A stretch of DNA of 64,000 bases, taken from NCBI GenBank assembly GCA_046290465.1, contig JBKAGP010000001.1, positions 3,632,270-3,696,269 of the forward strand. The letters are read 5' to 3'. Source of the DNA: Planctomycetota bacterium (GTDB lineage: Bacteria > Planctomycetota > UBA1135 > UBA2386). Shown piece by piece: positions 2 through 28,355 of the stretch. How positions within the stretch are numbered: position 1 is the stretch's first letter; each line of letters opens with the position of its first letter. The position numbers and the translations under genes were made by a program. A model generated the notes under the pieces. The model was not told the origin of the DNA and did not search any database. It was given only the letters and a program-made list of their open reading frames with translations.

Positions 2-694
2 GCGGCCGACGCGACCCCGACGGCGCTGGTGCTGAAGGCGTCCTCGGGCGGCGTCACCGGCACCGCGCGCGTGCGCGTCGTGCCGAGCGCGCCCTACACC
101 GACGACCTCGAGGACGTCGCGCTGCAGCCGCACCCGAAGGAGGATGGCGTGAACTTCGCGTTCCCGCGGGCGCACTGGATCAGCGCCAGGCTCAAGTGGG
201 AGGTGCGCGAACGCGACGGCAACAAGGTGCTCGCGCGCACGCTCGACCAGCCGCTGTTCCAGCGCACGATCTCGATGATCGGCGCGCCCGACATGGCCAA
301 CTACACCATGCAGGTCGACGTGATGACCGACGGCAACCGCCGCATCATGTCGACGCCGGGAATGGTCAACCAGCGCTACCTGATCCTGCTCAAGGGCAAC
401 CACCAGGCGCTCGAGATCACCTCCAACGAGGAGCTGCTGAAGGAGCGCGTCAAGTTCCGCTGGAAGCCCAAGGTCTGGTACCGGATGAAGAGCCGGGTCG
501 ACGTCGCGCCCGACGGCAGCGGCGTCGTGCGCGCCAAGGCCTGGCAACGCGACGAGCCCGAGCCGGACGGCTGGCTGCTGGAGGTCGAGGTGCCGCGCGC
601 CAATCGCAGCGGCTCCCCCGGCATCTACGGCTTCACCCCCCAGAGCCGCTTCCGCTGCTACGTCGACAACATCGTGGTGACCCCCAATGACTGA
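2..694 (+). CDS. hypothetical protein, C-terminal fragment (gene begins upstream of the window); possible jelly-roll/DUF1080-like domain
   Basis: Frame is open from nt 2 with no upstream stop and ends TGA 692-694. The stop overlaps the ATG of the next gene. Domain guess rests on weak motif resemblance only. Confidence 0.55.
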   Translation, partial: AADATPTALVLKASSGGVTGTARVRVVPSAPYTDDLEDVALQPHPKEDGVNFAFPRAHWISARLKWEVRERDGNKVLARTLDQPLFQRTISMIGAPDMANYTMQVDVMTDGNRRIMSTPGMVNQRYLILLKGNHQALEITSNEELLKERVKFRWKPKVWYRMKSRVDVAPDGSGVVRAKAWQRDEPEPDGWLLEVEVPRANRSGSPGIYGFTPQSRFRCYVDNIVVTPND

Positions 695-2252
695 TCTGAC
701 CCTGCGTGGCGTCGCGGCGCTGCTGATCGCCCCCGCCCTCCTCTCCTCGCTCGCGTCGGCCCAGGACTGGCCGATGTGGGGCCGCAACGCGACCCGCAAC
801 ATGGTCGCCGACGTCAAGGGACTGCCGCTCGACATCGTGCCCGGCGAGTTCGCCGACGACAGCGAGGACATCGACATCACGACGTCCAAGAACGTCAAGT
901 GGATCGCCAAGCTCGGCTCGCAGAGCTACGGCAACCCGACCGTCGCCGACGGCCGCGTCTACGTCGGCACCAACAACGACGTGCCGCGCGACGACCGCTT
1001 CCAGGGCGACCGCAGCTGCGTCTACTGCCTCGACGAGAAGACCGGCGAGCTGATCTGGCAGCTCAACGTTCCCAAGCTCGGCACCGGCAAGGTCAGCGAC
1101 TGGGAGTTCCTCGGCATCTGCAGTTCGCCCTGCGTCGACGGCGATCGCGTCTACCTGGTGACCAACCGCTGCGAGGTCATGTGCGTCGACGTCAACGGCT
1201 TCAAGGACGGCAACCAGGGCTTCCAGGACGAGGCCAAGTACTACGCCGACAACGGCAAGCCACCGGTCAAGGTCAACGAGAAGACCGACGCCGACATCAT
1301 CTGGAAGATGAACATGATCGACGAGTGCGGCGTGTTCCCGCACAACATCACCAGCTGCTCGGTGATGGTCGTTGGCGACCAGATCTGGACCTCGACGTCC
1401 AACGGCGTCGACTACGGCCACGTCGAGACGCCGGCCCCGAACGCGCCGTCGCTGATCGTCGTCGACAAGAAGACCGGCAAGCTGATCGGCGAGGAGGCCT
1501 CGGGCCTCAGCCAGAACATCTTCCACAGCAACTGGTCGTCGCCCGCCTACCTGAAGGCCGATGACACCGAGCTGGTGATCTTCGGCGGCCCGGACGGCGT
1601 GCTCTACGCGTTCGATCCGAAGCCGGTGAAGGACGAGGACGGCTTCCTGGTGCTGAAGGAGGCGTGGAAGTACGACTGCAACCCGAAGGCCTACCGCGTC
1701 AAGGAGGACGGTTCGCCGCGCAAGTACGCGACCGCCAAGGGACCGAGCGAGGTGCTGGCGACGCCGGTCGTCTACGACGGCCACGCCTACGCCCTGATCG
1801 GCCAGGACCCGGAGCACGGCGAAGGTGTCGGCAACCTCGTCTGCCTCGACCGCAACGGCAAGCAGGTCTGGTCGTTCGGCGAGATCCACCGCTCGATCTC
1901 GACGCTGTCGATCACCGACGGCCTGGTGTTCGCCGCCGACTACTCGGGCTACCTCTACTGCATCGACGCCAAGACCGGCGAGAAGTGCTGGCAGTACGAC
2001 ACCAGCGCGCACATCTGGGGCTCGACGCTGGTCGCCGACGGCCGCGTCTACGTCGGCATCGAGGACGGCTTCCTGGTCAGCGCGCCGGCGACGCGCGCGT
2101 TCGACAAGAAGAACGTCAAGGAGATCGACTTCGCGGTCCCGATCTACAGCTCGCCGATCGCGGCGAACGGCGTGCTCTACATCGCGACCCACACCCACCT
2201 GTTCGCCATCGCCAAGGGCGCCGGCGCGGCCGGGGACGACGGCGGCAAGTGA
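687..2252 (+). CDS. PQQ-like beta-propeller repeat protein (BamB-like family), secreted
   Basis: Signal peptide MTDLTLRGVAALLIAPALL..AQD followed by W-P-M-W-G-R-N motif. Repeated blades of the form G.VY.G..DG.LY..D..TGE..W. Confidence 0.8.
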   Translation: MTDLTLRGVAALLIAPALLSSLASAQDWPMWGRNATRNMVADVKGLPLDIVPGEFADDSEDIDITTSKNVKWIAKLGSQSYGNPTVADGRVYVGTNNDVPRDDRFQGDRSCVYCLDEKTGELIWQLNVPKLGTGKVSDWEFLGICSSPCVDGDRVYLVTNRCEVMCVDVNGFKDGNQGFQDEAKYYADNGKPPVKVNEKTDADIIWKMNMIDECGVFPHNITSCSVMVVGDQIWTSTSNGVDYGHVETPAPNAPSLIVVDKKTGKLIGEEASGLSQNIFHSNWSSPAYLKADDTELVIFGGPDGVLYAFDPKPVKDEDGFLVLKEAWKYDCNPKAYRVKEDGSPRKYATAKGPSEVLATPVVYDGHAYALIGQDPEHGEGVGNLVCLDRNGKQVWSFGEIHRSISTLSITDGLVFAADYSGYLYCIDAKTGEKCWQYDTSAHIWGSTLVADGRVYVGIEDGFLVSAPATRAFDKKNVKEIDFAVPIYSSPIAANGVLYIATHTHLFAIAKGAGAAGDDGGK

Positions 2253-2259
2253 GCCACGC

Positions 2260-2502
2260 ATGACCCGAAAGCTCTCGAGCGGCGGCAAGTTCGCGTGGGG
2301 CCTCGTCGTCCTGCTCGCGATCCTGCACTACGACTTCTGGTTCTGGGGCGACCGCAGCGTCGCGTTCGGCTTCCTGCCGGTCGGCCTGCTGTTCCAGGCG
2401 CTGATCTCGCTCGGGGCCGCCATCGCCTGGGCGCTGGTCGTCCGGTTCGCGTGGCCGACGCACATCGAGGAGTGGGCCGACCGGCCCGTTGACGACGAAT
2501 GA
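2260..2502 (+). CDS. DUF3311-like small membrane protein (accessory subunit commonly found upstream of SSS transporters)
   Basis: 80 aa with two hydrophobic helices (LVVLLAILHYDFWFWG, LLFQALISLGAAIAWALV). ATG at 2260 lies in frame with ORF 1825..2502; only the 3' 80 codons look genuine. Its stop overlaps the ATG of the symporter (ATGA). Confidence 0.55.
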   Translation: MTRKLSSGGKFAWGLVVLLAILHYDFWFWGDRSVAFGFLPVGLLFQALISLGAAIAWALVVRFAWPTHIEEWADRPVDDE

Positions 2503-4031
2503 TCTCGGCACTCCTGCAAGGCCCGCCGCAGAGCACCACCCCGCTCTACGTCGTCGGCGTCTACCTGCTGCTGCTGCTCGCGTTCAGCATCCTCAACAGC
2601 CGGCGCGCGCGCGGCTCGGCCGGCGAGTACTTCGTCGCCAGCCGCTCGATCGGACCGTTCCTGCTGCTGATGAGCGTGTTCGGCACGACGATGACCGCGT
2701 TCGCGCTCGTCGGCTCGACCGGCAAGGCCTACGACAGCGGCATCGGTGTCTACGGGCTGATGGCGTCGGCGTCCGGCATCATCCACTCGCTGGTGTTCTT
2801 CCTGGTCGGCATCCGGCTGTGGGCCATCGGCAAGCGCTTCAACTACGTCACCCAGATCCAGTTCTTCCGCGGCCGCTTCCAGTCGAACCTGCTCGGCTAC
2901 CTGCTGTTCCCGGTGCTGGTCGGGCTGGTGATCCCGTACCTGCTGATCGGGATCGTCGGCGCCGGCGCGGTCGTCAAGGGCATCTCCGGCGTGCCGACCT
3001 GGCTGACCGGACTGGTCGTCTGCGGGGTCGTGCTGGCCTACATCCTGACCGGCGGCGTGCGCGCCGCGGCGCTCGCCAACGCGGTGCAGACGATCGTGTT
3101 CATGGCGGTCGGCCTGCTCGCGTTCGTGCTGATCTCGGGCTCGCTCGGCGGCGTCGAGCAGGCCACCCAGAACGCGGCCGACAACACCCCGGAGCTGCTC
3201 GCCCGCGAAGGCAAGATCGGCCACCTGCAGTTCTTGAGCTACTGCTTCGTGCCGCTCTCGGTCGGCATGTTCCCGCACCTGTTCCAGCACTGGCTGACGG
3301 CGCGCAGCGCCAAGACGTTCCGCACCACGGTCATCGCGCACCCGATCTTCATCATGATCGTCTGGGTGCCGTGCGTGCTGATCGGCGTCTGGGCGGCCGG
3401 CGCCGGCATCGAGGCGCCCGGCGGCAACTCCAACGCGGTGCTGGCCAAGATGGTCGGCATGCAGCTGAAGAACCCCTGGATCAGCGGCCTGCTGATGGCC
3501 GGCATCCTGGCCGCGATCATGTCGTCGCTCGATTCGCAGTTCGTCTGCCTCGGCACGATCTTCACCCACGACATCGTCGTGCACGTGACCGGCGATCGCT
3601 TCGACGAGGCCCAGCGGGTGCGCCTCGGCCGGTTCTTCATCGTCGCGATCGTCGCGCTGACCTACGTGCTGTCGCTGTTCCCGCCGCCCAACGTGTTCGA
3701 TCTGGCGGTGTGGTGCTTCAGCGGCTTCGCCAGCCTGTTCCCGCTGGTCGTCGCGGCCGTCTACTGGCGTCGCGCGACCGCGAAGGGCGCCATCGCGTCG
3801 GTGCTGGTCGCCGGCGGCACCTGGGCGGTGCTGTTCTACGACGGCCTGCTGGCGCCGACGCTCGCGGGCGAACGCGCCGGCGAGGACTACCTGATCGGCG
3901 GCATGATGCCGGTCACGGTGATGATCGCCGCCTCGGCGGTGACGCTGGTCGTCGTCAGCCTGATGACGCAGCCGCCCTCGGCCGCAACCGTGGCCCGCTT
4001 CTTCGACGAAGACCCGGCCGCCGTATCCTGA
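2499..4031 (+). CDS. sodium:solute symporter (SSS) family transporter
   Basis: 510 aa polytopic membrane protein with SSS-like N-terminus (YFVASRSIGPFLL..GTTMTAFALVGSTGKAY). About 13 hydrophobic segments. Confidence 0.85.
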   Translation: MISALLQGPPQSTTPLYVVGVYLLLLLAFSILNSRRARGSAGEYFVASRSIGPFLLLMSVFGTTMTAFALVGSTGKAYDSGIGVYGLMASASGIIHSLVFFLVGIRLWAIGKRFNYVTQIQFFRGRFQSNLLGYLLFPVLVGLVIPYLLIGIVGAGAVVKGISGVPTWLTGLVVCGVVLAYILTGGVRAAALANAVQTIVFMAVGLLAFVLISGSLGGVEQATQNAADNTPELLAREGKIGHLQFLSYCFVPLSVGMFPHLFQHWLTARSAKTFRTTVIAHPIFIMIVWVPCVLIGVWAAGAGIEAPGGNSNAVLAKMVGMQLKNPWISGLLMAGILAAIMSSLDSQFVCLGTIFTHDIVVHVTGDRFDEAQRVRLGRFFIVAIVALTYVLSLFPPPNVFDLAVWCFSGFASLFPLVVAAVYWRRATAKGAIASVLVAGGTWAVLFYDGLLAPTLAGERAGEDYLIGGMMPVTVMIAASAVTLVVVSLMTQPPSAATVARFFDEDPAAVS

Positions 4032-4041
4032 CCCCGACGCC

Positions 4042-5090
<1,049 letters not shown>

Positions 5091-5094
<4 letters not shown>

Positions 5095-6530
5095 GCGCTC
5101 CCCACATCCCGGTGCTGCGGCACGGCGTCGAGTACGAGAGCCTCGACCAGAGCGAGCTGACCGGCATCGGCAGCAACGAGGTGCTGGCGCGCATCAGCCA
5201 GACCAACGCCGGCATGATCAAGCGCGACCTGCGCCGCGCCGACGACGCCGCCAAGAAGCTGCGCGCGCTCAGCAGCGCGCGCCTGCTCGAGATCTGCAAG
5301 CAGGCCGGCAAGCTGTTCCTCGAAGGCGACCTGCCGCTCAACGAGCAGGGTGACACGCAGACCGCCGGCCAATACGTCGCGACGCTCAGCCGCACCAGCG
5401 GGCTGCCGCACGTGCTCGTGCGGCGCAACATGCAGAAGGTCTTCACCGTGCTCGACGGCATGGCGGACATCCTGCGCGGGCTGATGCGCGGCATGGACCC
5501 GGCGGTCGTCGAGACCGGCTTCGGCGAGCACTGCGGCGTGCCGGTCTACTACGCACCGACGACGTCGACCCTCGGCGTCGTGCTGCCGAGCAACTCGCCC
5601 GGCGTCAACTCGATCTGGATCCCGTCGCTGGCGCTCGGCGTGCCGGTCGTGCTCAAGCCCGGCCGCGAGGAGCCGTGGACGCCGCTGCGGATCATGCAGG
5701 CGCTGATCGCCGCCGGCTGCCCGCGCGAGGCGTTCTGCTTCTACCCGACCGACCACGAAGGCTCGTCGGTGATCCTCGACCGCTGCGGCCGCGTGCTGCT
5801 GTTCGGCGACGAGGCCGTGACCAAGGCCTGGTCGCACGACGAGCGCGTGCAGATCCACGGCCCGGGCCGCAGCAAGGTGATCCTCGGCCCGGACGTGGTC
5901 GACGACTGGCGCAGCTTCCTGCCGGTGCTGGCGGCGTCGGTCGCCGACAACGGCGGCCGCAGCTGCATCAACGCCTCGTCGATCTTCGTGCCGGCGCACG
6001 GCCGCGAGATCGCCGAAGCGCTGGCCACCGAGCTGGCGTCGCGCGCGCCGAAGCCGGCCGACGACGACGGCGCGGTGCTGTCGGCGTTCGCCAACCGCAA
6101 GTTCGCCGAGTTCATCGACGCCAAGATCGACGAGGACGTCGCGGCCGGCGGCGCCGAGGACGTCAGCAGCCGGCACCGGGGTGGCCCGCGCCGACGCGAC
6201 ATCGACGGCGCGCCCTACCTGCTGCCGACCGTCGTGCACTGCGACAGCGTCGAGCACCCGCTGGCGCGCACCGAGTTCCTGTTCCCGTTCACCAGCGTGG
6301 TCGAGGTCGCGCCCGAACGGCTGGTCGCCGACATGGGCCCGAGCCTGGTGGTCACGGCGATCACCCGCGACCAGGCGCTGATCGACGAACTGAAGCGCTC
6401 CGACCACGTCGACCGCCTCAACCTCGGCCCGGTGCCGACCTCGCACGTCGAGTGGGACCAGCCGCACGAGGGCAACCTGTTCGAGTTCCTGTACGAACGC
6501 CGCGCGATCCAGCGGGCGACCGACTGGTAG
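5091..6530 (+). CDS. acyl-CoA reductase (LuxC-like), aldehyde dehydrogenase superfamily
   Basis: About 479 aa. ALDH-type catalytic-Cys context DNGGRSCINASSIFVP. Start is probably TTG 5091 overlapping the previous stop (TTGA) or GTG 5112. The upstream 5' part of ORF 4242..6530 is rejected. Confidence 0.6.
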
Positions 6531-7673
6531 ATGCAAGCGCGCACGTTCGAGCTGCCGACGAAGGTCGTGCTCGGCGCGGGCGCGCTGGGCGAGGTGCCGA
6601 CGCTGGTCGGCGACCGCGTGTTCGTGGTCACCGACCCGGGCATCGTCGCGGCCGGCCACTGCGAACGTCTCGAACGGCTGCTGGCCGACGCCGGCATCGA
6701 GGTCCACCGCTACCAGGACGTGCAGCCGAATCCGGACGAGCACGCGGTCGCGGCGTGCCTCGCCGCGTTCGAGCGGGCGGGTGACGGGATCGAGTGGATC
6801 GTCGCGCTCGGTGGCGGCAGCGCCATCGACGTCGCCAAGGGCTGCGCGATGCTCGCCTGCGGCGGCGGCCGCATGGCCGACTACCTCGGCCGCGCCCGCA
6901 TCGACGTGACCTCCCCGCGCCTGATCGCGATCCCGACCACCGCAGGCACCGGCAGCGAGACGCAGTCGTTCGCGCTGATCGGCAACCGCGACACCGGCCA
7001 GAAGATGGCGTGCGGCGGCAGCGCGCCGTTCGCGACCGTGCTCGACCCCGAGCTGACCGTGAGCATGCCAGCGCCGGTGACCGCGTGCACCGGCCTCGAC
7101 ACGCTGGCCCACGCGGTCGAAGCCGCGGTCAGCCGCCGCAGTACGCCGTGGTCGGCGACGTTCGCGCGCGAGGCGTTCCGGCTGGTCGAACGCCACTTCG
7201 AACGCGTGCTCGGCCAGCCCGACGACCTCGACGCGCGCGCTGCGATGCTGCACGCGTCGGCGCTGGCCGGCATCGCGATCGAGAACGGCATGCTCGGCGC
7301 CGCGCACTCGATGGCCAATCCGCTGACCCGGCGCTTCGACACCGCCCACGGCCAGGCGGTCGGCCAGGCGCTGCCGGCGGTCGTCGCGTACAACGCCGGC
7401 GACCCGTCCGCGCGCATCGGCTACGCCGACCTCGCGCGCGGGTCCGCCCTGGTCACCAACGATGCAGACGACGGCGTCGCCGTCGACGCGCTGCTGCGCC
7501 GGCTGCGCACGCTGGTCGAACGCGCCGGCTTCGGCCCGCACATTCCGGGCGTGCCGTCGGCCGCCGCCGACGAGCTCGCTGCCGAAGCCGCCACCCAATG
7601 GACCGCGCAGTTCAACCCGCGCGACGTCGACGTCGCCGCGTTCGCCGGGCTCTACCGGGAGGTGCTCGCGTGA
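6531..7673 (+). CDS. iron-containing alcohol dehydrogenase (Fe-ADH family)
   Basis: GGGSAIDVAKG glycine motif and metal-binding His cluster (HAVEAAV.., HSMANPL). ATG lies immediately after the TAG of the upstream gene. Confidence 0.85.
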   Translation: MQARTFELPTKVVLGAGALGEVPTLVGDRVFVVTDPGIVAAGHCERLERLLADAGIEVHRYQDVQPNPDEHAVAACLAAFERAGDGIEWIVALGGGSAIDVAKGCAMLACGGGRMADYLGRARIDVTSPRLIAIPTTAGTGSETQSFALIGNRDTGQKMACGGSAPFATVLDPELTVSMPAPVTACTGLDTLAHAVEAAVSRRSTPWSATFAREAFRLVERHFERVLGQPDDLDARAAMLHASALAGIAIENGMLGAAHSMANPLTRRFDTAHGQAVGQALPAVVAYNAGDPSARIGYADLARGSALVTNDADDGVAVDALLRRLRTLVERAGFGPHIPGVPSAAADELAAEAATQWTAQFNPRDVDVAAFAGLYREVLA

Positions 7674-9703
7674 GGATCCTGCCGTTCGTCACCGTGCTGG
7701 TGCTCGCCGGCACCGCGCTGGTCGCCCAGCGCATGCGGCTCGACGCCTCGGGTGCGTTCTTCACCAGCAACCCGGCCAGCACCGCCGAAGAGCGACCGCT
7801 GGTGACGTTCGATGCCGGCGCCATCACGCCGTCGATGCTCGCCGATTTCGGCGGCGCGCGGACCGGGCCGCGCATCCTCGAGAACCTCGCGTTCGCGATG
7901 GCCCTGGCGCGCGAATGCGAGGCCCGCGGGCTCGCCCGCAGCGCCCCGACCCTGGCCCGCTCCGAGGTCGCGCAGCAGACCGTCGGCGACCAGCCGTTCG
8001 ATCCGGAGACCCGTGCCCGCCTCGCGACCGAGGCCCTGCGCGACCTGCGCATGGTCGCGCTGATCGGCGAACAGCGCGCCAGGGACGAGGACGCGCTGCG
8101 CGAGCTGTTCGAGCACCGATACGGCAAGGGCGGCGTGCGCGTGCGGGTCCGCCACGTGCTCAGCACCGACCGGATGTCGGCGCCGCAGACGGCCGGCGAG
8201 CGAGCCGCGGCGCTGCGCGCCACGCTGCAGACCGGCGCGACCTTCGACGACCTGCTGGCGAAGTCGCACGACCGCGTCACCCGCCGGCTGCTGCGCGATC
8301 CGCAGCGCCGCGCCGAGGCCGGCCTGCTGCCCAACTACAACTACCATCGCTACGGCGAGGCGTTCGCCCGAGCGGTGCGCGCGCTCGAGGTCGGCGAGGT
8401 CTCGCAACCGGTCTCGTCGTCGGTCGGCGTGCACCTGATCGAACTGCTCGACCGCACCACGACGCAGCTCGCAGACGTGCGCACCGAGCTGGTCCGACAG
8501 CTCGCCGGCGGCAAGGCGCGCAGCGCCGAGATCCTGCAGCTGCGCCAGCGCCTGCTCGCCAAGTACGGCTACCAGGCGCCTGCCGCCGTCGCCCGCAAGC
8601 GCACCCCCGTCGCGGACCTCGGTCCGCCGCCGTCGACCGAGTGGCCGCACTATCGCGGCAACCCGCAGCTGCACGGTGTCTCGGCGGCACGACTCGGCGA
8701 CCAGCCGACGCTCGCGTGGCGGTTCGACACCGCCGGCGACATCCTGTCGTCGCCGGTGATCGCCAACGGCCTGGTCTACATCGGTTCGACCGACAACTTC
8801 GTCTATGCGATCGACCTGAAGACCGGCGAGCAGCGCTGGAAGTTCGAGACCAAGGACATGGTCGAGGCGCCGCCGCTGGTCGTCGACGGCCGCGTGTTCG
8901 TCGGTTCGTCGGACTTCTTCTTCTACGCGCTCGACGCCGCCGGCGGCGGGCTGCTGTGGAAGTACGAGACCCAGGACCGGATCCTCGGCGGCGCCAACTG
9001 GTTCCGCAGCCAGAACGGCAAGACGCGCGTGCTGGTCGGCAGCTACGACGCCAACGTCTACTGCTTCGACGTGCACGGCGGCGATCCGCTGTGGACCTAC
9101 GCGACCGACAACTACGTCAACGGCTCGCCGGCGATCGCCGGCCGCGAGACGCTGTTCGGCGGCTGCGACGCCGCGCTGCACCTGGTCGACCTCGAGAGCG
9201 GCGAACGCGTCGCCAAGGTCGAGCTCGGTGAGGGCTGCCAGGTCGCCGGCTCGGTCGCGCTGCTCGGCGACCGCGCCTACTTCGGCCACTACGGCAACGA
9301 GTTCCTGCGCGTCAACCTCGACGACGGCAAGGCCGAGTGGCGCTACGCGAGCAAGCGGCAGGGCTTCTGCTCGTCGCCGGCGGTCGGCGAGAAGTACGTC
9401 GTGTTCGGCGGCCGCGATCGCCACCTGCACTGCGCGCTGCGCGCCGACGGCACCCCGCAGTGGCAGTTCCGCACCAGGCGCAAGGTTGACGCGTCGCCGG
9501 TGATCTGCGGCGACAAGGTCGTGTTCGGTTCGGGCGACGGCCGCCTCTACGTGCTGCGGCTCGCGACCGGCGAGAAGGTCTGGAGCTACGACATCGGCAA
9601 GCCGATCTACTCGTCGCCGGCGGTCGTCGACGACATGATCGTGGTCGGCGCCGGCGACCAGCGCGTCTACGCGTTCCGCGCTCCCGCAGGAGGCGGCAGG
9701 TAG
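7670..9703 (+). CDS. fusion protein: N-terminal PpiC/parvulin-type peptidyl-prolyl isomerase domain plus C-terminal PQQ-like beta-propeller
   Basis: GTG 7670 overlaps the upstream stop (GTGA) and is preceded by a hydrophobic N-terminus (VRILPFVTVLVLAG). Parvulin-like block VRVRHVLS..TFDDLLAKSHD..GEVSQPVSSSVGVHLIEL. WPHYRGNPQLHG plus blades follow from about residue 330. Confidence 0.7.
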   Translation: MRILPFVTVLVLAGTALVAQRMRLDASGAFFTSNPASTAEERPLVTFDAGAITPSMLADFGGARTGPRILENLAFAMALARECEARGLARSAPTLARSEVAQQTVGDQPFDPETRARLATEALRDLRMVALIGEQRARDEDALRELFEHRYGKGGVRVRVRHVLSTDRMSAPQTAGERAAALRATLQTGATFDDLLAKSHDRVTRRLLRDPQRRAEAGLLPNYNYHRYGEAFARAVRALEVGEVSQPVSSSVGVHLIELLDRTTTQLADVRTELVRQLAGGKARSAEILQLRQRLLAKYGYQAPAAVARKRTPVADLGPPPSTEWPHYRGNPQLHGVSAARLGDQPTLAWRFDTAGDILSSPVIANGLVYIGSTDNFVYAIDLKTGEQRWKFETKDMVEAPPLVVDGRVFVGSSDFFFYALDAAGGGLLWKYETQDRILGGANWFRSQNGKTRVLVGSYDANVYCFDVHGGDPLWTYATDNYVNGSPAIAGRETLFGGCDAALHLVDLESGERVAKVELGEGCQVAGSVALLGDRAYFGHYGNEFLRVNLDDGKAEWRYASKRQGFCSSPAVGEKYVVFGGRDRHLHCALRADGTPQWQFRTRRKVDASPVICGDKVVFGSGDGRLYVLRLATGEKVWSYDIGKPIYSSPAVVDDMIVVGAGDQRVYAFRAPAGGGR

Positions 9704-9707: not shown

Positions 9708-11012
9708 ATGCGCCTGATGCTGCTGACGCCGGGCACCGGCCACTTCTTCTGCGGCAGCTGCCTGCGCGACGACGCGCTCGGCAACGCGCTGCGACAGCAG
9801 GGACACGATGCCACCAACGTGCCGCTCTACCTGCCGATGGTGCTCGAGCGTCCCGACGACCATCCGGTCCCGGTGCACATGGGCGGGATCAACGTCTACC
9901 TGCAGCAGAAGGCGCGCATGTTCCGCCATCTGCCGCGCTTCGTCGCCAACTGGCTCGACAGCCCCAGGCTGCTGCGCTGGGTGGCGAGCCGCAGCAGCAT
10001 GACCGACGCCAGCGACCTCGGCGCGATGACCGTGTCGATCCTGCGCGGCGAGTGCGGCAAGCAGGAGAAGGAGATCGACAAGCTGGTGGCGTGGATCGGC
10101 ACACAGCCGCGCCCCGACGTCGTCATCGTCTCCAACGCGATGCTGACCGGCGTCGTGCGGCGCCTGCGCGACGCCCTCGGCGTGCCGGTGATGGTGACGC
10201 TGCAGGGCGAGGCGCCGTTCTTGGACGCGCTGCCGCCGCAGGACCGCGACGCGGCGTGGCAGACGCTGCGCGAACGCGCCGGCGAGGTCGACGCGCTGGT
10301 CGCCGTCAGCGCCGACTACCGCGACGAGATGCAGGCGCGCCTGCAGGTCGACCCCGACCGGCTGCACGTGGTGCACAACGGCATCGACCTGAGCGGCTTC
10401 GACGACGAGGCCGCACCGCCGTCCGGACGCACGCCGCCGACGATCGGCTACCTGGCGCGCATGTGCCGCGACAAGGGCCTCGACACGCTGGTCGACGCGT
10501 TCGTCCGCCTGCGCTCCGACGCGCGCTTCCCGCAGCTGCGCCTGCGCGTCGCCGGGGTGCAGCTCGCCGAGGATCGCGCCTACGTCGAGCAACTGCAGCA
10601 GCGGCTGCAGGCCGCTGGCTGCCTCGACGACGCCGAGTTCCTGCCGAACATCGACCGCGCGCAGAAGCTGACGTTCTTGCGTTCGCTGACGGTGATGTCG
10701 GTGCCGGCGCGCTACGGCGAGTCGTTCGGCCTCTACCTGCTCGAGGCGATGGCGGCCGGCGTGCCGGTCGTGCAGCCGCGCCACGCGGCGTTCCCCGAGG
10801 TGCTCGACGCGACCGGCGGCGGCCTGCTGTGCGAACCGGAGGACCCGGCGTCGCTCGCTGCGGGCCTCGCCGAAGTGCTGTCCGACCCGCAGCACGCCGA
10901 CCGGCTCGGCAGCCGCGGCCGCGAGGCCGTGCGCGAGCGCTTCACGTCCGCCCACATGGCTGCCAACGTCACCCGCATCTGCGAAGCCCTCGCAGCCGCC
11001 CGCTCGACCTGA
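9708..11012 (+). CDS. glycosyltransferase family 4 (GT-B, RfaB-like)
   Basis: N-terminus MRLMLLTPGTGHFFCGSCLRD. C-terminal GT4 signature E.FGL..LEAMAAGVPVV. Confidence 0.8.
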   Translation: MRLMLLTPGTGHFFCGSCLRDDALGNALRQQGHDATNVPLYLPMVLERPDDHPVPVHMGGINVYLQQKARMFRHLPRFVANWLDSPRLLRWVASRSSMTDASDLGAMTVSILRGECGKQEKEIDKLVAWIGTQPRPDVVIVSNAMLTGVVRRLRDALGVPVMVTLQGEAPFLDALPPQDRDAAWQTLRERAGEVDALVAVSADYRDEMQARLQVDPDRLHVVHNGIDLSGFDDEAAPPSGRTPPTIGYLARMCRDKGLDTLVDAFVRLRSDARFPQLRLRVAGVQLAEDRAYVEQLQQRLQAAGCLDDAEFLPNIDRAQKLTFLRSLTVMSVPARYGESFGLYLLEAMAAGVPVVQPRHAAFPEVLDATGGGLLCEPEDPASLAAGLAEVLSDPQHADRLGSRGREAVRERFTSAHMAANVTRICEALAAARST

Positions 11013-11053: not shown

Positions 11054-11578
11054 ATGCAGACCTGGATCCTGTTCGCGCTCCTCACCGTCGCCTCGTGGGG
11101 CATCTACGGCGTGCTGCTGCACAGCGGCCAGGTCGCGATGAGCGACCCGCAGAACGGCCGCTACAAGGCGTTCTTCTGGGTCGGCATCGCCTACTTCCTG
11201 ATCGCGGTGCTGGCGCCCGCCGGCATGCTGCTGGCGGCGAAGGCCTCGTGGTCGATGCCGTCCAAGGCGATCTGGCTGTCGCTGTTCGCCGGGGTCGTCG
11301 GCGCCGTCGGCGCGTTCGGCGTGCTGCTCGCGTTCGGCGCCAAGGGCCACCCGGCCGCGGTGATGTCGATCATCTTCGCCGGCGCACCGATCGTGAACGC
11401 GTTCGTCGCGATGTCGCTGCACCCACCCAAGGGCGGCTGGGGCAGCCTCGACTGGCGCTTCCTGCTCGGCATCGCCCTGGCCGCGACCGGCGGGCTGCTG
11501 GTCAGCCTCTACAAGCCCGCGCCCGGCGGCGCCAAGCCGGCCGGCCAGCCACCGAGCCAGCAGAACGCGCCGAAATGA
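11054..11578 (+). CDS. small integral membrane protein (4 TM), unknown function
   Basis: 174 aa. In-frame ATG inside the long spurious ORF 10052..11578. Four hydrophobic helices. Its stop overlaps the ATG of the ABC ATPase. Confidence 0.5.
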   Translation: MQTWILFALLTVASWGIYGVLLHSGQVAMSDPQNGRYKAFFWVGIAYFLIAVLAPAGMLLAAKASWSMPSKAIWLSLFAGVVGAVGAFGVLLAFGAKGHPAAVMSIIFAGAPIVNAFVAMSLHPPKGGWGSLDWRFLLGIALAATGGLLVSLYKPAPGGAKPAGQPPSQQNAPK

Positions 11579-12282
11579 GCGCACCGCTGGTCGAACTGCG
11601 CGGGATCACCCGTCGCTTCGGTGCGACGACCGAAGTGCTGCGCGGGATCGATCTCGAGGTCGCCGCGGACGACACGCTGGCCGTGCTCGGCCCGTCCGGC
11701 TGCGGCAAGAGCACGTTGCTGCACATCCTCGGCGGGCTGCTGCCGCCCACCAGTGGCACCGCGCGCTTCGACGGCCGCGACCTCGCGACGATGTCGGCGA
11801 CCGAACTGGCCGCGCTGCGCAACCGCGAGATCGGCTTCGTGTTCCAGGCGCACCACCTGCTGCCGCAGTGCACCGCGCTCGAGAACGTGCTGGTGCCGAC
11901 CCTCGTGCACCCCAAGGACGACGCGCGCCGCTCTGCCGAGTCGCGTGCCCGCGAGCTGCTCGCCGACGTCGGCCTCGGCCAACGCCTCGACCACCGCCCG
12001 GCGCAGCTGTCCGGAGGCGAGCAGCAGCGCGTCGCGGTCGTGCGCGCGCTGATCAACCGGCCGCGGCTGCTGTTGGCGGACGAGCCGACCGGCTCGCTCG
12101 ATGAGGCGGGCACCGACCTGCTCGGCGACCTGCTGTGCTCGCTCAACGAGAAGCACCGGGTTGCGGTCGTGACGGTCACCCACTCGCCGCGGCTGGCCCG
12201 GCGCATGCGGCGCGTGGTCGAGCTGCACGCAGGCCGCCTGCGCCGCGCCGACGACGCCCGCGCGGCGGACACGGCCGGATGA
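11575..12282 (+). CDS. ABC transporter ATP-binding protein (LolD/MacB-type)
   Basis: Walker A GPSGCGKST, signature LSGGEQQRVAVVRAL, Walker B LLLADEPTGSLD. Confidence 0.85.
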   Translation: MSAPLVELRGITRRFGATTEVLRGIDLEVAADDTLAVLGPSGCGKSTLLHILGGLLPPTSGTARFDGRDLATMSATELAALRNREIGFVFQAHHLLPQCTALENVLVPTLVHPKDDARRSAESRARELLADVGLGQRLDHRPAQLSGGEQQRVAVVRALINRPRLLLADEPTGSLDEAGTDLLGDLLCSLNEKHRVAVVTVTHSPRLARRMRRVVELHAGRLRRADDARAADTAG

Positions 12283-15200
12283 GCTCCTGGAGCCTGATCG
12301 CGCGCGGCCTCGCGCACCACTGGCGCACGCACGTCGGCGTCGTGCTCGGCGTGCTGGTCGCGACCGCGGTGTTGGCCGGCGCGCTGATCGTCGGCGACTC
12401 GGTGCGCGCCAGCCTGCGCCGCCAGGCCCTGCAGCGCATCGGCCGCTTCGACAGCGTGCTCGCCTGCGGCGACCGCTTCGTCACCGCCGACCTCGCGCGA
12501 CGCATCGAGGCCGGACTCGGTGCGACCACCTGCGCGGCGCTGCAGCTGCCGGGGGTCGCCAACCGCGGGGACGGCAACGCGCGCACCGGCATCGTCGACG
12601 TGTTCGGCGTCGACGACACGTTCTTCGCGATGAGCACGCGCGGCGTCGCCCGCCCGGCACCGGCACCTCGCCACGCGCTGCTCAACCGGCAGCTGGCCGA
12701 ACAGCTCGGCGTGCAGCCCGGTGACGAGATCGTGCTGCGCATCGAAAAGCCCAGCCTGATGCCGCAGGAGGCGACGATGGCGACCGTCGACGACCTCGCG
12801 TTCGCGATGCGCGTCGAGATCGACGCGCTCGTCGACGACGACGAGTTCGGCCGCTTCGGCCTGCGCGCCAGCCAGGTCGCGCCGTTCGACGTGTTCGTGT
12901 CGCGCACCTGGCTCGCCGCAGAACTCGAACTCGAAGGCCACGCCAACCTGCTGCTGAGCGCGGCCGGCACGACCCGCAGTGACGAGGCCCTGCGCGCCCA
13001 CTGGACGCTCGCCGACGCCGAACTCGAGCTGCGCGTCGGCGACGCCGGCAGCGAACTGCGCAGCGGCCGCGTGTTCCTCGATGCAGCGATCGTCGACGCG
13101 GCCACGGAGCTGGCTCCCGACGCGTTCGGCGTGTTCACCTACTTCGTCAACGCGCTGCAGGTCGGCGAGCGCGTCACGCCCTACTCGATGGTCTGCGGCG
13201 TCGGCCCGCTCCGTAGCGCACCGGCGACGGCTCCGCTGCGGCAGCTGATGCCGGCCACGGACGACCTGCTGATGCCCAACGCCTGGCTCGCAGACGACCT
13301 CGGCGCCGACCGCGACGACCGCGTCCGGCTGCGCTACTACGTGATGAACGAGCAGCTGCAGCTCGAGGAACGCGAGCACGAACTGCGGATCGGCCGCGTC
13401 GTGCCGCTGGTCGGCGTGGCCGCCGACCCGACGCTGATGCCCGAGTTCCCCGGACTGGCCGAGGCGCGTAGCTGCACCGACTGGGAGCCGGGCGTGCCGG
13501 TCGAGCTCGACCAGCTCGACGACCGCGACCAGCAGTACTGGGACGAACACCGCGGCACGCCCAAGGCGTTCGTGTCGCTGGCGACCGCGCGCTCGCTGTG
13601 GGCCAATCGGTTCGGCACGCTGACGGCGATCCGCGTGCCCGCAGGTCCCGACGCCGAACGGCTCGCGCAGCTGCCGCGCCGGCTCTTGCCCGAATCGGTC
13701 GGCCTGTTCTTCCAGGACCTGCGCGGCCCCGCGCTCGCTGCCGCCGCACCCGCGACCGACTTCGGCGCGCTCTACCTCGGCCTCAGCTTCTTCCTGATCG
13801 TCGCGGCGCTGCTGCTGACCACGCTGCTGTTCGTGTTCGGCATCGAGCAGCGCGCCGGCGAGGTCGGCACGCTACTGGCGGTCGGCTACGAGCCACGGCA
13901 GGTGCGCAGCCTGTTCGTGCGCGAGGCGCTGCTGCTCGCGTGCGTCGGCGCGGCGCTCGGCACGTTCGCCGGCATCGGCTACGCCGACGGCGTGCTCGCC
14001 GGCCTCGCCACGCTGTGGCAGGACACCGCCCGGCAGGCGGCGCTCTCGGCCCACGTCGAACCCGGCTCGCTCTTGACCGGCGCAGCAGTCACGATCCTGG
14101 CCGCGATGGTCGCGATCTGGTGGACGCTGCGCGCGACCGCGCGGCGACCGGCCGTCGAGCTGCTGGCGACCCGCGGCGGCCTGGAGGCCGCCTCGACCGA
14201 TCCCGCCAGCGCACGCCGACGGCTGTGGACCAGCAGCCTGGTCGCCGCGTTGGCGGCCACGGGCGCGCTGACGCTGGCGCTGCGCGCCGACCCGTGGCGG
14301 GCGACCAGCGCGTTCTTCGGCGGCGGCGCGCTGCTGCTGGTCGCGTCGCTCGCGGCGTGCCGTGCGCTGCTGGCGCGCCTCGGTGCCGGTCCACGTCGGC
14401 CGATCGCGACGGTCGCGGCGCTCGGCCTGCGCAGCGCCAGCCGACGGCCGGGGCGCAGCCTCGCGTCGATCGCGCTGCTCGCGAGCGGCGCCTTCCTGGT
14501 GCTGGCGATCCAGGCCAACCGGCTCGCGCCGCCGCAGGACCCGACCGAACGCACCTCCGGCACCGGCGGCTTCGCGCTGTTCGGTCGCTCGACGCTGCCG
14601 GTGTTGCGCGACCTCGCGACCGAGGCGGCGCGCGACGCCTACGCGCTCGACTCAAGAACGCTGCGGGACGTCGACGTCGTGCCGCTGCGGCTGCGGCCCG
14701 GCGACGACGCCAGCTGCCTCAACCTCGCCACCGCCCAGAACCCACAGCTGCTCGGCGTGCTGCCGGAACGGCTCGCCCGGCGCGGTGCGTTCCGCTTCAC
14801 CCGCGCGATCGACGGCGCGTCGGTCGACGACGGCTGGACGCTGCTCGAACGGGACCTCGGTCCGAACGTCGTGCCGGCGATCGGCGACGGCGGCAGCGTC
14901 GCCTGGGCGCTGCACAAGAAGGTCGGCGACTCGCTGCGCTACCGCGACGAGAACGGCGAGGAGTTCGACGTGCGCATCGTCGCCACCGTCGCCGACTCGA
15001 TCCTGCAGGGCAACCTGCTGATCGCCGACCGCCACCTGCGCGCGCGCTTCCCTTCAGCGTCGGGCTTCCGCATGTTCCTCGTCGATGCGCCCGCGCAGCG
15101 CGCCGACGAGGTCGCGCGCGACCTGAGCGACGCGCTGTCCGACATCGGCCTCGAACTGACGCCGACCGGCCAGCGGCTCGCGTCGTTCCAGTCGGTGCAG

Positions 15201-15581
15201 AACACCTACCTGTCGATCTTCCAACTGCTCGGCGGCCTCGGCTTGTTGCTCGGCACGGTCGGCCTCGGCGTCGTCGTGATGCGCAACGCACTCGAACGCC
15301 GCAGCGAACTCGCGGTCGCGCGCGCGCTCGGGTTCTCCGACGGCGCCGTGCGGCGACTGGTCTGGAGCGAGCACGCGCTGCTGCTGGCCCTCGGCCTGTT
15401 GGCCGGAACCGCCGCCGCCTCGATGGCCATGATCCCGGCGCTGCGCGACGGCCGGGACCTGCCGCTCGGGTCGTCGGCCCTGCTGCTCGGCGCACTCGCC
15501 GCGAGCGGCGCGTTCTGGGTCTGGCTGGCCAGCCGCCTCGCCACCCGCGGCCCGCTGCTCGACCGGCTGCGCGGCGACTGA
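12279..15581 (+). CDS. ABC transporter permease, FtsX/MacB-like, very large (about 1100 aa) with duplicated permease modules
   Basis: ATG 12279 overlaps the ATPase stop. N-terminal TM followed by a large extracytoplasmic region. Two FtsX-like 4-helix bundles lie near residues 520-650 and 970-1100. Confidence 0.75.
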   Translation: MSSWSLIARGLAHHWRTHVGVVLGVLVATAVLAGALIVGDSVRASLRRQALQRIGRFDSVLACGDRFVTADLARRIEAGLGATTCAALQLPGVANRGDGNARTGIVDVFGVDDTFFAMSTRGVARPAPAPRHALLNRQLAEQLGVQPGDEIVLRIEKPSLMPQEATMATVDDLAFAMRVEIDALVDDDEFGRFGLRASQVAPFDVFVSRTWLAAELELEGHANLLLSAAGTTRSDEALRAHWTLADAELELRVGDAGSELRSGRVFLDAAIVDAATELAPDAFGVFTYFVNALQVGERVTPYSMVCGVGPLRSAPATAPLRQLMPATDDLLMPNAWLADDLGADRDDRVRLRYYVMNEQLQLEEREHELRIGRVVPLVGVAADPTLMPEFPGLAEARSCTDWEPGVPVELDQLDDRDQQYWDEHRGTPKAFVSLATARSLWANRFGTLTAIRVPAGPDAERLAQLPRRLLPESVGLFFQDLRGPALAAAAPATDFGALYLGLSFFLIVAALLLTTLLFVFGIEQRAGEVGTLLAVGYEPRQVRSLFVREALLLACVGAALGTFAGIGYADGVLAGLATLWQDTARQAALSAHVEPGSLLTGAAVTILAAMVAIWWTLRATARRPAVELLATRGGLEAASTDPASARRRLWTSSLVAALAATGALTLALRADPWRATSAFFGGGALLLVASLAACRALLARLGAGPRRPIATVAALGLRSASRRPGRSLASIALLASGAFLVLAIQANRLAPPQDPTERTSGTGGFALFGRSTLPVLRDLATEAARDAYALDSRTLRDVDVVPLRLRPGDDASCLNLATAQNPQLLGVLPERLARRGAFRFTRAIDGASVDDGWTLLERDLGPNVVPAIGDGGSVAWALHKKVGDSLRYRDENGEEFDVRIVATVADSILQGNLLIADRHLRARFPSASGFRMFLVDAPAQRADEVARDLSDALSDIGLELTPTGQRLASFQSVQNTYLSIFQLLGGLGLLLGTVGLGVVVMRNALERRSELAVARALGFSDGAVRRLVWSEHALLLALGLLAGTAAASMAMIPALRDGRDLPLGSSALLLGALAASGAFWVWLASRLATRGPLLDRLRGD

Positions 15582-15704
15582 CGGCGCCGCGTCGACGCGG
15601 CGAGGTCCCAGTTACGTCCTAACTCCGTATGTGTCGCGGTTGGGGTGCCGGGGTGGCTTCCGTTCCCTGCGCGCCCCCGCTATGCCAACGTGCCAGGAGC
15701 TCCC

Positions 15705-17564: not shown

Positions 17565-18791
17565 TCACTTGGAGGCGGCGCCGAGGCAGACCAGCTGCTC
17601 GGCCGTGCGCACGAACATGCAGCCGCGCGCCAGCGCCGGCGTCGCCAGGATCGGCGCACCGAGGTCGAGCGAGCCGAGCCGTTGGTGCCGGCCGATCGCG
17701 AAGCTGACCAGGTGGCCCTCGCGGTCGCCGATGTAGATCGCGCGGCCGTTGCTCACCGGCGAGCTGAAGAAGCGGTGCTCGCTGCGTTCGCGCCACCGCT
17801 GCTCGCCGGTCTCTGCTTCGATGCAGCTGCAGTAGCCGCTGTCCGAGAACAGGTAGAAGTGGCCGTCGACGGCGATCGGCGACGGCACGTACGGCAGCCC
17901 GCGACGCGGCTTGTAGCGCACCTCGGGCTCCTTGCGGGCGCCGTCGGCGAGGTCGAACACGACGCACTCCTTGCCCGAGTCGCCGCTGCCGGTCTGCACC
18001 ATCAGCAGGTCGCCCGACAGGCACGGGCAGGCGATGAACCGGTTCTTGAAGCCGAGGTCGGCCTGCCAGCGGAGCTCGCCCGACTCCGGCTCGATCGCGG
18101 TCAGGCCGTGCGCGTAGCTCGCCAGCAGCAGCACCGGCGGCGCATCCTTCGGGCGGTGCACGAACGGCGGTGAGTAGCACGCCCAGCGCGCCTTCTGCTG
18201 CCGTTCGATGCGCCAACGCGGCTTGCCGGTGCGGCGATCGAGCGCCGTCACGAAGCAGTCGTCGCCCTGGTTCTCGTTGGCGACGACCAGCAGGTCGCCG
18301 CACAACACCGGCGACGTCGCGCTGCCGTGGTTGCTGTAGAACGCGCCGAGCTCGCGCCGCCACAGCGGCTTGCCCGCGTGGTCGAGCGCCAGCGCGACCA
18401 GCTGCTTGCCGGAGGTCCACAACACGTAGACGCCGTCGGCATCGACGGCCGGCGTCGACGACGCAAAGCTGTTGAGCTTGTGCTGGTCGTGCGGCTCGAA
18501 CGCGCTTCTGCGCGCCCAGCGCTGCTCGCCGGTGTCGGCGTCGAAGCAGACGACCTCACGTTCGCCGCGCTGGTCGCCGATGCGCGTCAGGAACAGCGCA
18601 TCGCCCCACAGCACCGGCGACGAGTGGCCGGCGCCGGCATCGACCCGCCAGCGAACGTGCTGCTCGGTCAGGACCGCCGGCAGGTCGGCCTTGCCGTGGC
18701 CCTGCCCCGCCGGGCCGCGCAGCCGCGTCCACTCCTGCGCGGCGGGCGCCGCGGCCAGCAGCACGACCAGCAACCCCGGCGCCGCGCGCAT
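17565..18791 (-). CDS. PQQ-like beta-propeller repeat protein
   Basis: Start taken at MRAAPGLLVVLLAAAPAAQEW (signal peptide). ATG overlaps the stop of the upstream minus-strand gene (TGATG). Confidence 0.75.
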   Translation of the reverse strand: MRAAPGLLVVLLAAAPAAQEWTRLRGPAGQGHGKADLPAVLTEQHVRWRVDAGAGHSSPVLWGDALFLTRIGDQRGEREVVCFDADTGEQRWARRSAFEPHDQHKLNSFASSTPAVDADGVYVLWTSGKQLVALALDHAGKPLWRRELGAFYSNHGSATSPVLCGDLLVVANENQGDDCFVTALDRRTGKPRWRIERQQKARWACYSPPFVHRPKDAPPVLLLASYAHGLTAIEPESGELRWQADLGFKNRFIACPCLSGDLLMVQTGSGDSGKECVVFDLADGARKEPEVRYKPRRGLPYVPSPIAVDGHFYLFSDSGYCSCIEAETGEQRWRERSEHRFFSSPVSNGRAIYIGDREGHLVSFAIGRHQRLGSLDLGAPILATPALARGCMFVRTAEQLVCLGAASK

Positions 18792-21492: not shown

Positions 21493-21559
21493 GGCGGGAT
21501 GTTACGGCGGCGTCGAGCAATCCCGCATCCGGACCCGGCGCCGAGACGAAACGGCGACG

Positions 21560-24042: not shown

Positions 24043-24081
24043 GGGGGTGTTCGTGGTGTGGTGGCGGGGTACCGTTCGTGC

Positions 24082-28338: not shown

Positions 28339-28355
28339 CGGCGACCGCTACTTCT
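28331..28355 (+). terminator. hairpin GTAGCGG-CGA-CCGCTAC followed by a T-rich tract between convergent genes
   Basis: 7-bp stem immediately after the TAG of the upstream gene, followed by ttcttctc. Confidence 0.4.

Follow-up and report, generated by a model that had tools for sequence, protein, structure and literature searches.

A run of five genes in a planctomycete genome appears to encode a solute transporter with a small membrane partner, an adenylating enzyme, an aldehyde dehydrogenase (ALDH)-like protein and an iron-type alcohol dehydrogenase (Fe-ADH). What would such a set of proteins do together, and how much of it is new? The genes occupy positions 2260–7673 of the stretch of DNA that was analyzed, hereafter the window, which comprises 64,000 nt of a Planctomycetota bacterium (assembly GCA_046290465.1, contig JBKAGP010000001.1, positions 3,632,270–3,696,269 of the forward strand). 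An earlier note on this DNA described them as a single transcription unit for the import of a carboxylic acid and its reduction by enzymes of the LuxE and LuxC families followed by the Fe-ADH. We are inclined, with a little more belief than doubt, to the view that the five genes bring a carboxylic acid into the cell and reduce it in two steps, first to the aldehyde and then to the alcohol. Judged by homology, the reductase pair belongs to the EhpF/EhpG (GriC/GriD) family, not of the LuxE/LuxC family and not a type I carboxylic acid reductase (CAR). The enzyme chemistry is already known, and what is new is its context: the pair is coupled to a transporter and an Fe-ADH, associated with secreted beta-propeller proteins and found across the Planctomycetota and Verrucomicrobiota (together PVC here). 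The five genes are as follows:

2260–2502, + strand: DUF3311-type small two-helix membrane protein, 80 aa, presumed accessory subunit of the symporter
2499–4031, + strand: sodium:solute symporter (SSS), 510 aa, PF00474, presumed carboxylate importer
4042–5094, + strand: putative EhpF/GriC-type stand-alone adenylating enzyme, 350 aa, ANL N-terminal domain only
5091–6530, + strand: putative EhpG/GriD-type ALDH-superfamily reductase partner, 479 aa, by PF00171 and homology to partner ALDHs
6531–7673, + strand: iron-type (group III) alcohol dehydrogenase, 380 aa, PF00465 and PF25137, presumed aldehyde reductase

All five open reading frames (ORFs) were confirmed at these coordinates, co-oriented on the + strand, and direct reading of the junctions bore out the overlaps described in the earlier note. 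The G+C content of the window is about 70%, and that of third codon positions reaches 0.94–0.97 in the five frames, which marks them as coding. An ATGA overlap at 2499–2502 joins the stop of the DUF3311 gene to the start of the SSS gene, which ends at 4031; after a 10-nt gap the adenylating gene begins with the ATG at 4042. It overlaps the ALDH-like gene by TTGA at 5091–5094, so that the start codon of the latter would be TTG, with an in-frame GTG 7 codons downstream as the alternative. The ALDH-like gene stops with TAG at 6528–6530, directly abutting the ATG of the Fe-ADH gene at 6531.

The adenylating enzyme is a full-length homolog of EhpF. A phmmer search against the PDB matched it to entries 3L2K/3HGU with an E value of 3.6e-39, residues 10–350 of its 350 being aligned with residues 23–366 of EhpF in 3L2K, and the two chains end alike, in ...IVEGVY and ...VIEGVY, with (I/V)EGVY in both. 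The ANL C-terminal subdomain is absent and the adenylation core motifs are kept. Across 84 orthologs from related loci, 335–366 aa in length, 125 of the 350 positions are invariant, and the invariant motifs include the P-loop FETGGTTGMPKQR, YGNTLMGLA and ERD. In ANL enzymes the C-terminal subdomain, about 100 residues long, is required for the thioester-forming half-reaction. Lacking it, the window enzyme would be unable to carry out this usual second half-reaction.

A tblastn search found plasmid-borne relatives at 32–38% identity, some of which are annotated as 'arylcarboxylate reductase' or 'phenazine biosynthesis protein'. A gene of the ALDH family lies directly downstream of the relatives in Streptomyces goshikiensis, an E. 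coli plasmid, Burkholderia and Halalkalicoccus jeotgali; the E. coli plasmid carries an ehp-type (phenazine) cluster, and the Burkholderia relative also sits in a phenazine cluster. The exception among the non-PVC relatives inspected is one GriC-like gene, which precedes a polyketide synthase (PKS) gene and not an ALDH gene. A neighbor-joining tree groups the PVC proteins in a tight clade apart from the phenazine-type, GriC-type and haloarchaeal groups. Among 1435 family representatives there are two fusions, a Zn-alcohol dehydrogenase joined to an EhpF-like domain and a class-III aminotransferase joined to an EhpF-like domain. These may be single-polypeptide acid-to-alcohol and acid-to-amine enzymes, respectively, and, since both fused partners use aldehydes, they fit an aldehyde as the product proposed here. 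The proteins with the aminotransferase and with the alcohol dehydrogenase are P0302 (Streptomyces, 824 aa) and P0362 (725 aa).

The ALDH-like protein matches PF00171 (Aldedh) with 61.3 bits. BLASTP comparison with three partner ALDHs that adjoin EhpF-like genes gave E values of 2e-39, 2e-31 and 2e-25; two of the alignments run end to end, and that with the partner from the E. coli plasmid covers residues 95–479. The best classical ALDH in the PDB is KauB, with an E value of 7e-11 and a partial alignment. On these scores the protein is far nearer to the EhpF-linked partner ALDHs than to classical ALDHs, and a family-specific C-terminal motif, PH(E/D)G...L, is common to it and all three partners. 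In an alignment of 63 PVC orthologs with the three outgroup partners, Cys292, Asn168, Glu395 and the C-terminal PH(E/D)G motif are invariant. The three residues correspond to the catalytic Cys (in GGRSC, within the motif GGRSCINAS quoted in the earlier note and present here), the oxyanion Asn and the Glu of the nucleotide site. The position equivalent to the general base Glu268, set by alignment to KauB, is His256 in the PVC clade and Q, R or Y in the outgroup partners. Loss of the general-base Glu with retention of the thiol is expected for an enzyme that reduces an acyl thioester rather than hydrolyzing it.

How do these findings bear on the LuxE/LuxC assignment? LuxE and LuxC perform an ATP-dependent acyl activation, transfer of the acyl group to a Cys of the ALDH-superfamily reductase and NADPH-dependent reduction to the aldehyde, and an acylated C-terminal Cys is characteristic of LuxE. 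The architecture of the window pair is analogous, namely an ANL-like enzyme of ~350–370 aa without the C-terminal subdomain and a thiol reductase of the ALDH superfamily, and the motifs on which the assignment was based, FETGGTTGMPK in the 4042–5094 protein and GGRSC, are indeed there. However, in Pfam neither PF04443 (LuxE) matched the adenylating enzyme nor PF05893 (LuxC) the ALDH-like protein even at E<=10, and the best relatives of known structure or function are EhpF and partners of the GriC/EhpG type. The 84 orthologs do not conserve Cys323 (in PCERYPWD), the one Cys close to the C-terminus, and EhpF has no Cys at this place, which argues against a LuxE-style acyl-Cys. No luciferase or LuxD-type gene was found among the scanned ORFs of the neighborhood. 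The likeness is thus one of logic only, the window differing in Pfam families, C-terminal Cys and neighborhood, and the LuxE/LuxC assignment gives way to EhpF/EhpG; that a LuxE-type acyl-protein synthetase and a LuxC-type reductase of luminous bacteria were recruited to a new context is extremely improbable.

Placement of the pair in the EhpF/GriC and EhpG/GriD families follows from the match to the EhpF structures, the alignments with the partner ALDHs and the adjacency of the ALDH genes. EhpF from Pantoea agglomerans (3L2K, 3HGU, 3HGV) is the best match among solved structures, at ~36% identity to the window enzyme, with the same length and C-terminus and likewise no ANL C-terminal subdomain. 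This missing subdomain is reportedly the atypical feature of EhpF, an enzyme of the D-alanylgriseoluteic acid pathway; a 2010 paper on EhpF reportedly proposed, but did not demonstrate, a reduction of phenazine-1,6-dicarboxylate to the aldehyde by EhpF and EhpG through an adenylate. This dicarboxylate is a product of the same gene cluster. The alignment of the window ALDH with an EhpG-like partner runs from residue 95 to the C-terminus at 23% identity, and the two share the motifs GPGR(S/A)K, GG..C and PH(D/E). Unlike the window, the ehp-type phenazine clusters that we inspected have no transporter or alcohol dehydrogenase. The EhpF structure paper is cited in PMC3175449.

The activity of such a pair has a precedent. 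As stated in PMC10179220, which cites Suzuki et al. 2007, GriC, a protein of the AMP-binding kind, and GriD, an ALDH-like one, of Streptomyces griseus 'constitute a carboxylic acid reductase', in which the acyl-AMP that GriC forms from 3-amino-4-hydroxybenzoate (3,4-AHBA) is reduced by GriD to the aldehyde. Since GriC/GriD is published as a two-component reductase dependent on ATP and NAD(P)H, the window pair is not a new enzyme class, and the claim that it represents a new carboxylate-reduction route distinct from CAR was anticipated in 2007. The window resembles GriC/GriD in having a stand-alone AMP-forming enzyme of ~350 aa with an ALDH-superfamily protein directly after it; the likeness was judged through proteins annotated as 'arylcarboxylate reductase', to which the window enzyme is 32–34% identical over its full length. 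The settings differ. GriC/GriD, in the grixazone pathway, act on an endogenous intermediate within an antibiotic or pigment cluster, whereas the window pair comes together with an importer and an Fe-ADH, belongs to a tight clade of its own and is conserved in two phyla in the manner of primary metabolism.

The type I CAR, with the domain order A-PCP-R (adenylation, peptidyl carrier protein, reductase), catalyzes the same net reaction, from acid, ATP and NAD(P)H to aldehyde. In contrast to it, the window reductase is a thiol enzyme of ALDH fold: none of the five proteins matched the PP-binding or NAD_binding_4 profile, that is, they have no carrier domain and no R domain of the short-chain dehydrogenase/reductase (SDR) type, and no phosphopantetheinyl transferase was found among the scanned ORFs of the first 23 kb.

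A CoA-dependent route, in which a PaaK-like aryl-CoA ligase makes the acyl-CoA and a CoA-acylating aldehyde dehydrogenase works in reverse to give the aldehyde, has to be considered at this point. The sole Pfam match of the adenylating enzyme is AMP-binding (21.8 bits, under cut-off), its NCBIfam matches are to F390 synthetase and PaaK, the top NCBIfam match of the ALDH-like protein is the CoA-acylating methylmalonate-semialdehyde dehydrogenase (MMSDH; E 1e-6), and JGI labels relatives as 'PaaK-like' and 'acyl-CoA reductase-like'. All of these profile matches, and the assorted other ALDH matches, are far under the curated cut-offs. The adenylating enzyme, moreover, ends where EhpF ends, without the C-terminal subdomain, and a true PaaK-like ligase with an AMP-binding_C_2 domain is separately encoded in related clusters. 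We regard the CoA-dependent route as very unlikely. The earlier note had taken PaaK/F390 and generic ALDH families in different neighborhoods as a sign against its proposal. The first half was seen in part, as weak PaaK, F390 and AMP-binding matches and the generic Aldedh profile were all that the profiles gave, but the neighborhood is conserved, as described below.

The Fe-ADH matched PF00465 with 134.5 bits and PF25137 with 101.3 bits, and its nearest solved structures are an NAD-dependent methanol dehydrogenase (5e-50) and 1,3-propanediol oxidoreductase. In 52 sequences the NAD-binding GGGS motif never varies, nor do the metal ligands D190, H194, H259 and H273, which align with their counterparts in methanol dehydrogenase 8ZRL. 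The protein is therefore the Fe-ADH that it was taken for, with all four metal ligands present.

The symporter, too, was correctly named: it matched PF00474 with 153 bits over profile positions 1–405 of 406. In NCBIfam the models PanF, PutP and MctP come closest to it, each with a score far under its cut-off, and none of the five proteins has an equivalog-level NCBIfam match. Among solved structures only distant SGLT matches were found for the symporter, from which a substrate is not assignable. The small protein encoded before it scored 25.5 bits against DUF3311 (PF11755), for which the cut-off is 30; its orthologs in related loci, at 40–82% identity, include one that passes the cut-off (39.6 bits, locus L089) and one just below it (29.5 bits, L003), which would fit a DUF3311-type identity. 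In Sinorhizobium, DUF3311 genes accompany the pyruvate/monocarboxylate permease MctP (PMC9100948).

In Verrucomicrobiota loci without an SSS gene the same slot is filled by a major facilitator superfamily (MFS) protein of the aromatic-acid/H+ symporter type, and locus L089 has both. Such a non-orthologous replacement supports substrate import as the function of the slot. The best matches of the slot MFS are the aromatic-acid/H+ symporter family, MhpT and PcaK, and those of a MarR-family regulator, which is divergently encoded upstream of propA (one of two propeller genes described below) in loci of the Verrucomicrobiota type, are BilQ, BagL/FevM and HpaR; all of these are sub-threshold. PaaK-like and 4HBT genes occur in the extended cluster of relatives. 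Together with the known or proposed substrates of the family, which are aromatic, these hints weakly favor an aromatic carboxylate as the putative substrate. Weighing against it, the nearest models of the window symporter, PanF and PutP, are not known aromatic-acid carriers. The MFS genes lie at 6699–8387 of L076 and 2444–3988 of L089, and the MarR gene at 707–1246 (− strand) of L077.

Put together, the predicted sequence of events is as follows. The SSS and its DUF3311-type partner would import a carboxylic acid, and the EhpF/GriC-type enzyme, given its homology to a solved structure and its intact motifs, would convert it with ATP to the acyl-adenylate. The activated acyl group would pass to the EhpG/GriD-type partner, most plausibly as a thioester on Cys292, and be reduced there with NAD(P)H to the aldehyde, a reaction demonstrated experimentally for such a pair only with GriC/GriD. 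The Fe-ADH would then turn the aldehyde into the alcohol. The chemistry from acid through acyl-AMP and aldehyde to alcohol is supported by homology, synteny and gene fusions, and in this respect the core logic of the earlier note, an adenylating enzyme, an ALDH-type reductase and an alcohol dehydrogenase acting on an imported carboxylate, holds up. The genetic coupling to secreted propellers and, in relatives, to a TonB-dependent receptor and the MarR regulator suggests that the substrate originates outside the cell.

Rather than a self-contained unit, the five genes make up the center of an array that numbers 12–13 genes. Their neighbors are:

29–694, + strand: propA, C-terminal part; the rest of the ~770-aa secreted BamB/PQQ_2-like propeller is lost at the start of the window
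687–2252, + strand: propB, secreted 8-bladed BamB-like beta-propeller
7670–9703, + strand: fusion of a peptidyl-prolyl isomerase (PPIase, rotamase) and a propeller, the third BamB-like propeller; Pfam Rotamase and Beta-prop_ACSF4, 208 bits
9708–11012, + strand: glycosyltransferase GT4; Pfam Glycos_transf_1 and Glyco_transf_4
11054–11578, + strand: small EamA-like membrane protein; weak EamA match, 59% identity to its positional counterpart in locus L088
11575–12282, + strand: LolD/MacB-like ABC ATPase; NCBIfam LolD 245 bits, under cut-off
12279–15581, + strand: double-FtsX permease, ~1100 aa; two Pfam FtsX copies

The stop of propB (TGA, 2250–2252) is 7 nt from the ATG of the DUF3311 gene at 2260, a GTGA overlap at 7670–7673 joins the Fe-ADH stop to the PPIase-propeller gene, and two further ATGA overlaps follow at 11575–11578 and 12279–12282. 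Tight co-directional packing, under way before position 29, extends as far as 15581 and probably 17561. A sequence scan, a weak test in this phylum, found no terminator-like or sigma-70-like promoter site within the five-gene block; the nearest + strand terminator-like match, at 9728–9740, is just inside the GT4 gene. The packing thus agrees with the single transcription unit proposed earlier, but the limits of that unit at five genes do not stand. The functional link of GT4 to the reductase module is uncertain.

Is this arrangement conserved? Counted as 90%-identity clusters, relatives of the adenylating enzyme number more than 8000, of which the best 120 listed are 74–92% identical; among these 120, the named organisms are Planctomycetota represented by metagenome-assembled genomes (MAGs), with the protein mostly called 'hypothetical protein'. 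When one genome per species was scanned, relatives turned up in at least 430 genomes. Synteny was examined in the best 80 of these, all of them MAGs, with identities in the adenylating enzyme of 70–92% in the scan and 61–92% overall; they belong to the Planctomycetota (including Phycisphaerae) or Verrucomicrobiota, with a few bins labeled Luminiphilus, Vicinamibacteraceae or 'bacterium'. Shadow ORFs confound ORF calling at high G+C content, and co-occurrence was scored by tblastn in loci with enough flanking DNA only.

The conserved order is (TonB-dependent receptor)–propA–propB–DUF3311–SSS–adenylating enzyme–ALDH–Fe-ADH–propeller, continued by (HemN-like radical SAM)–GT4–(4HBT thioesterase)–EamA-like–(PaaK-like ligase)–ABC–FtsX. 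An ALDH gene is directly downstream of the adenylating gene in 52 of 71 loci and elsewhere in the locus in 6 more, and an Fe-ADH gene accompanies it in 45 of 60. A transporter gene is directly upstream in 49 of 65 loci (SSS in 42, MFS in 7), 5 more having an SSS gene slightly further away. The block is conserved in relatives, as the earlier note had supposed. Upstream, propB is found in 52 of 58 loci; the PPIase-propeller gene follows the Fe-ADH gene in 25 of 55, and GT4 is kept in many Planctomycetota loci.

A similar order is found outside the bacteria. Plasmid 2 of the archaeon Halalkalicoccus jeotgali carries a small transmembrane ORF, SSS, EhpF-like and ALDH genes in the same order, with 28% identity to the window in the SSS (E 3e-45), 36% in the adenylating enzyme and 25% in the ALDH. 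This uncharacterized locus differs in having no Fe-ADH or propellers, and an SDR gene lies close by on the opposite strand. The small ORF (L006, 4281–4517) is unannotated; it encodes 78 aa with two helices and overlaps the start of the SSS gene, in the position of the DUF3311 gene. It was considered as a DUF3311 member and set aside, as it has no Pfam DUF3311 match.

Several points weigh against the import-and-reduction pathway. The enzyme chemistry in this clade is read from sequence, as is the direction in which the ALDH and the Fe-ADH work, and the invariant His256 might in principle be able to activate water. It is also not obvious what a cell would gain by expending ATP and two NAD(P)H to reduce an acid that it imports. 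About one fifth to one quarter of the related loci have no ALDH or Fe-ADH gene beside the adenylating gene, and these, together with the GriC-like gene that precedes a PKS gene, indicate that the acyl-adenylate can have other acceptors. The median pairwise identity is 0.71 for the adenylating enzyme versus 0.53 for its ALDH partner, and a simple pathway leaves both this slow evolution and the tighter link of the adenylating gene to propB unexplained. With so much of the conservation and context unaccounted for, import and reduction is the best-supported reading for the five genes and probably not the whole story.

Could the flow be oxidative? The Fe-ADH and the ALDH-like protein would then oxidize an alcohol through the aldehyde to the acid. 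The adenylating enzyme would activate this acid so that it can be ligated to an amine, an alcohol or a carrier, and the module of the GT4, EamA-like and ABC-FtsX proteins would use the product in making or exporting an envelope glycoconjugate. The array does run without a break into the GT4, EamA-like, ABC and FtsX genes, and His256 is invariant at the general-base position throughout the PVC clade. In locus L088 the ALDH, Fe-ADH and propeller genes are contiguous with radical SAM, FAD protein, GT4, 4HBT, EamA, PaaK and ABC genes, with no adjacent adenylating gene or transporter, and the GriC-like gene before a PKS gene also agrees with an oxidative, biosynthetic flow. Against this flow, the general-base Glu is lost family-wide (Q, R, Y or H in its place), all other inspected non-PVC relatives keep the adenylating-ALDH order, reduction is the published reaction of GriC/GriD, and the fusions are to aldehyde-consuming enzymes. 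The block, furthermore, contains no ligase acceptor, condensation domain or carrier protein, and a dedicated importer is directly upstream. We therefore consider the oxidative flow quite unlikely. A 349-aa gene after the Fe-ADH gene in L088 was examined as the missing adenylating enzyme and proved to encode a propeller instead.

The propellers themselves raise another question, namely whether the adenylating enzyme has its main partner among them. Here propA and propB and, in relatives, a HemN-like radical SAM protein and a QhpG/LodB-like flavoprotein would form a secreted system that makes or recycles a small-molecule or protein-derived cofactor, and the ALDH and Fe-ADH would be accessory. 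The most constant neighbor of the adenylating gene is propB. Its product is nearly as conserved as the adenylating enzyme (63–93% identity in the best 120 matches) and carries many invariant polar motifs, GTGKVSDWE, VFPHN, NGVDYGHVETPAPNAP, HSNWSSP and GQDPEHGEGVGN, which look more like an active or metal-binding site than a scaffold surface. Some loci consist of propA, propB and the EhpF-like gene without transporter, ALDH or Fe-ADH, and the FAD protein of relatives has sub-threshold matches to the quinone-cofactor maturases QhpG, LodB and GoxB, to the halogenase CmlS and to geranylgeranyl reductases. These maturase-like matches are under cut-off, though, and the window has no radical SAM and FAD genes. 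Signal peptides are present on the propellers, whereas the adenylating enzyme acts in the cytoplasm and depends on ATP; the modeled fold of propB is predicted to be nearer to the BamB and YxaL scaffolds than to pyrroloquinoline quinone (PQQ) enzymes, and no precursor peptide or cofactor gene was identified. We judge such a propeller-centered role unlikely. The idea of propB as a PQQ dehydrogenase found no support, since its sequence matches span two blades only and its model is nearer to BamB/YxaL, but propB may be an enzyme of some kind. The propA fragment is 58% identical to residues 539–768 of propA of locus L001 (tblastn), and propA is upstream of propB in nearly all related loci.

If the pathway of import and reduction is taken together with its surroundings, a larger system can be imagined. 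We put forward as a tentative and rather doubtful proposal that the Planctomycetota and Verrucomicrobiota have an undescribed, strongly conserved system of propellers, in some cases a TonB receptor, an SSS/DUF3311 or MFS importer and the reductase pair with Fe-ADH, which captures an external acid, possibly aromatic or cofactor-like, and reduces it to the alcohol. If true, this would be a role in primary metabolism for an enzyme pair hitherto met only in antibiotic and pigment pathways, and a first function for the large 'PQQ-like' propeller families of these phyla. The literature that we found, in a limited searchable set, contains no description of this cluster. Reductases of the GriC/GriD type are described only from a few secondary-metabolite clusters, and they are of interest for biocatalysis as they give aldehydes without a carrier domain or phosphopantetheinyl transferase. 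The locus also suggests, in concrete terms, what a widespread block of genes labeled 'hypothetical protein' may do in the mostly uncultured Planctomycetota and Verrucomicrobiota, which are abundant in water and soil, and offers an entry point to the function of many BamB/PQQ-like propellers.

Other features of the related loci and of the window can be noted briefly. In some Planctomycetota loci labeled Isosphaeraceae, as at 11237–17657 of L021, two CCP_MauG (di-heme cytochrome c peroxidase) proteins of ~1000 aa take the place of the ALDH and Fe-ADH after the adenylating gene. A module of HemN-like radical SAM, FAD protein, YbgC-like 4HBT thioesterase and PaaK-like ligase genes is present in relatives (L001, 13153–17095; L088, 14237–21434; L089, 14717–17925) and missing from the window. 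An Rfam search of seven related loci (139 kb) found no riboswitch. The unusually long double-FtsX permease pairs with the LolD-like ATPase and is preceded by the EamA-like gene, all three being joined by the ATGA overlaps. The window contains at least a dozen paralogous genes of secreted PQQ_2/BamB-like propellers on both strands, a large local expansion, which includes the following:

15645–17561, + strand: propeller
21161–22879, + strand: propeller
24019–25359, + strand: propeller
25557–26912, + strand: propeller
26968–28338, + strand: propeller
17565–18872, − strand: propeller
18791–20221, − strand: propeller with EF-hand
20257–21492, − strand: propeller
28348–30579, − strand: propeller

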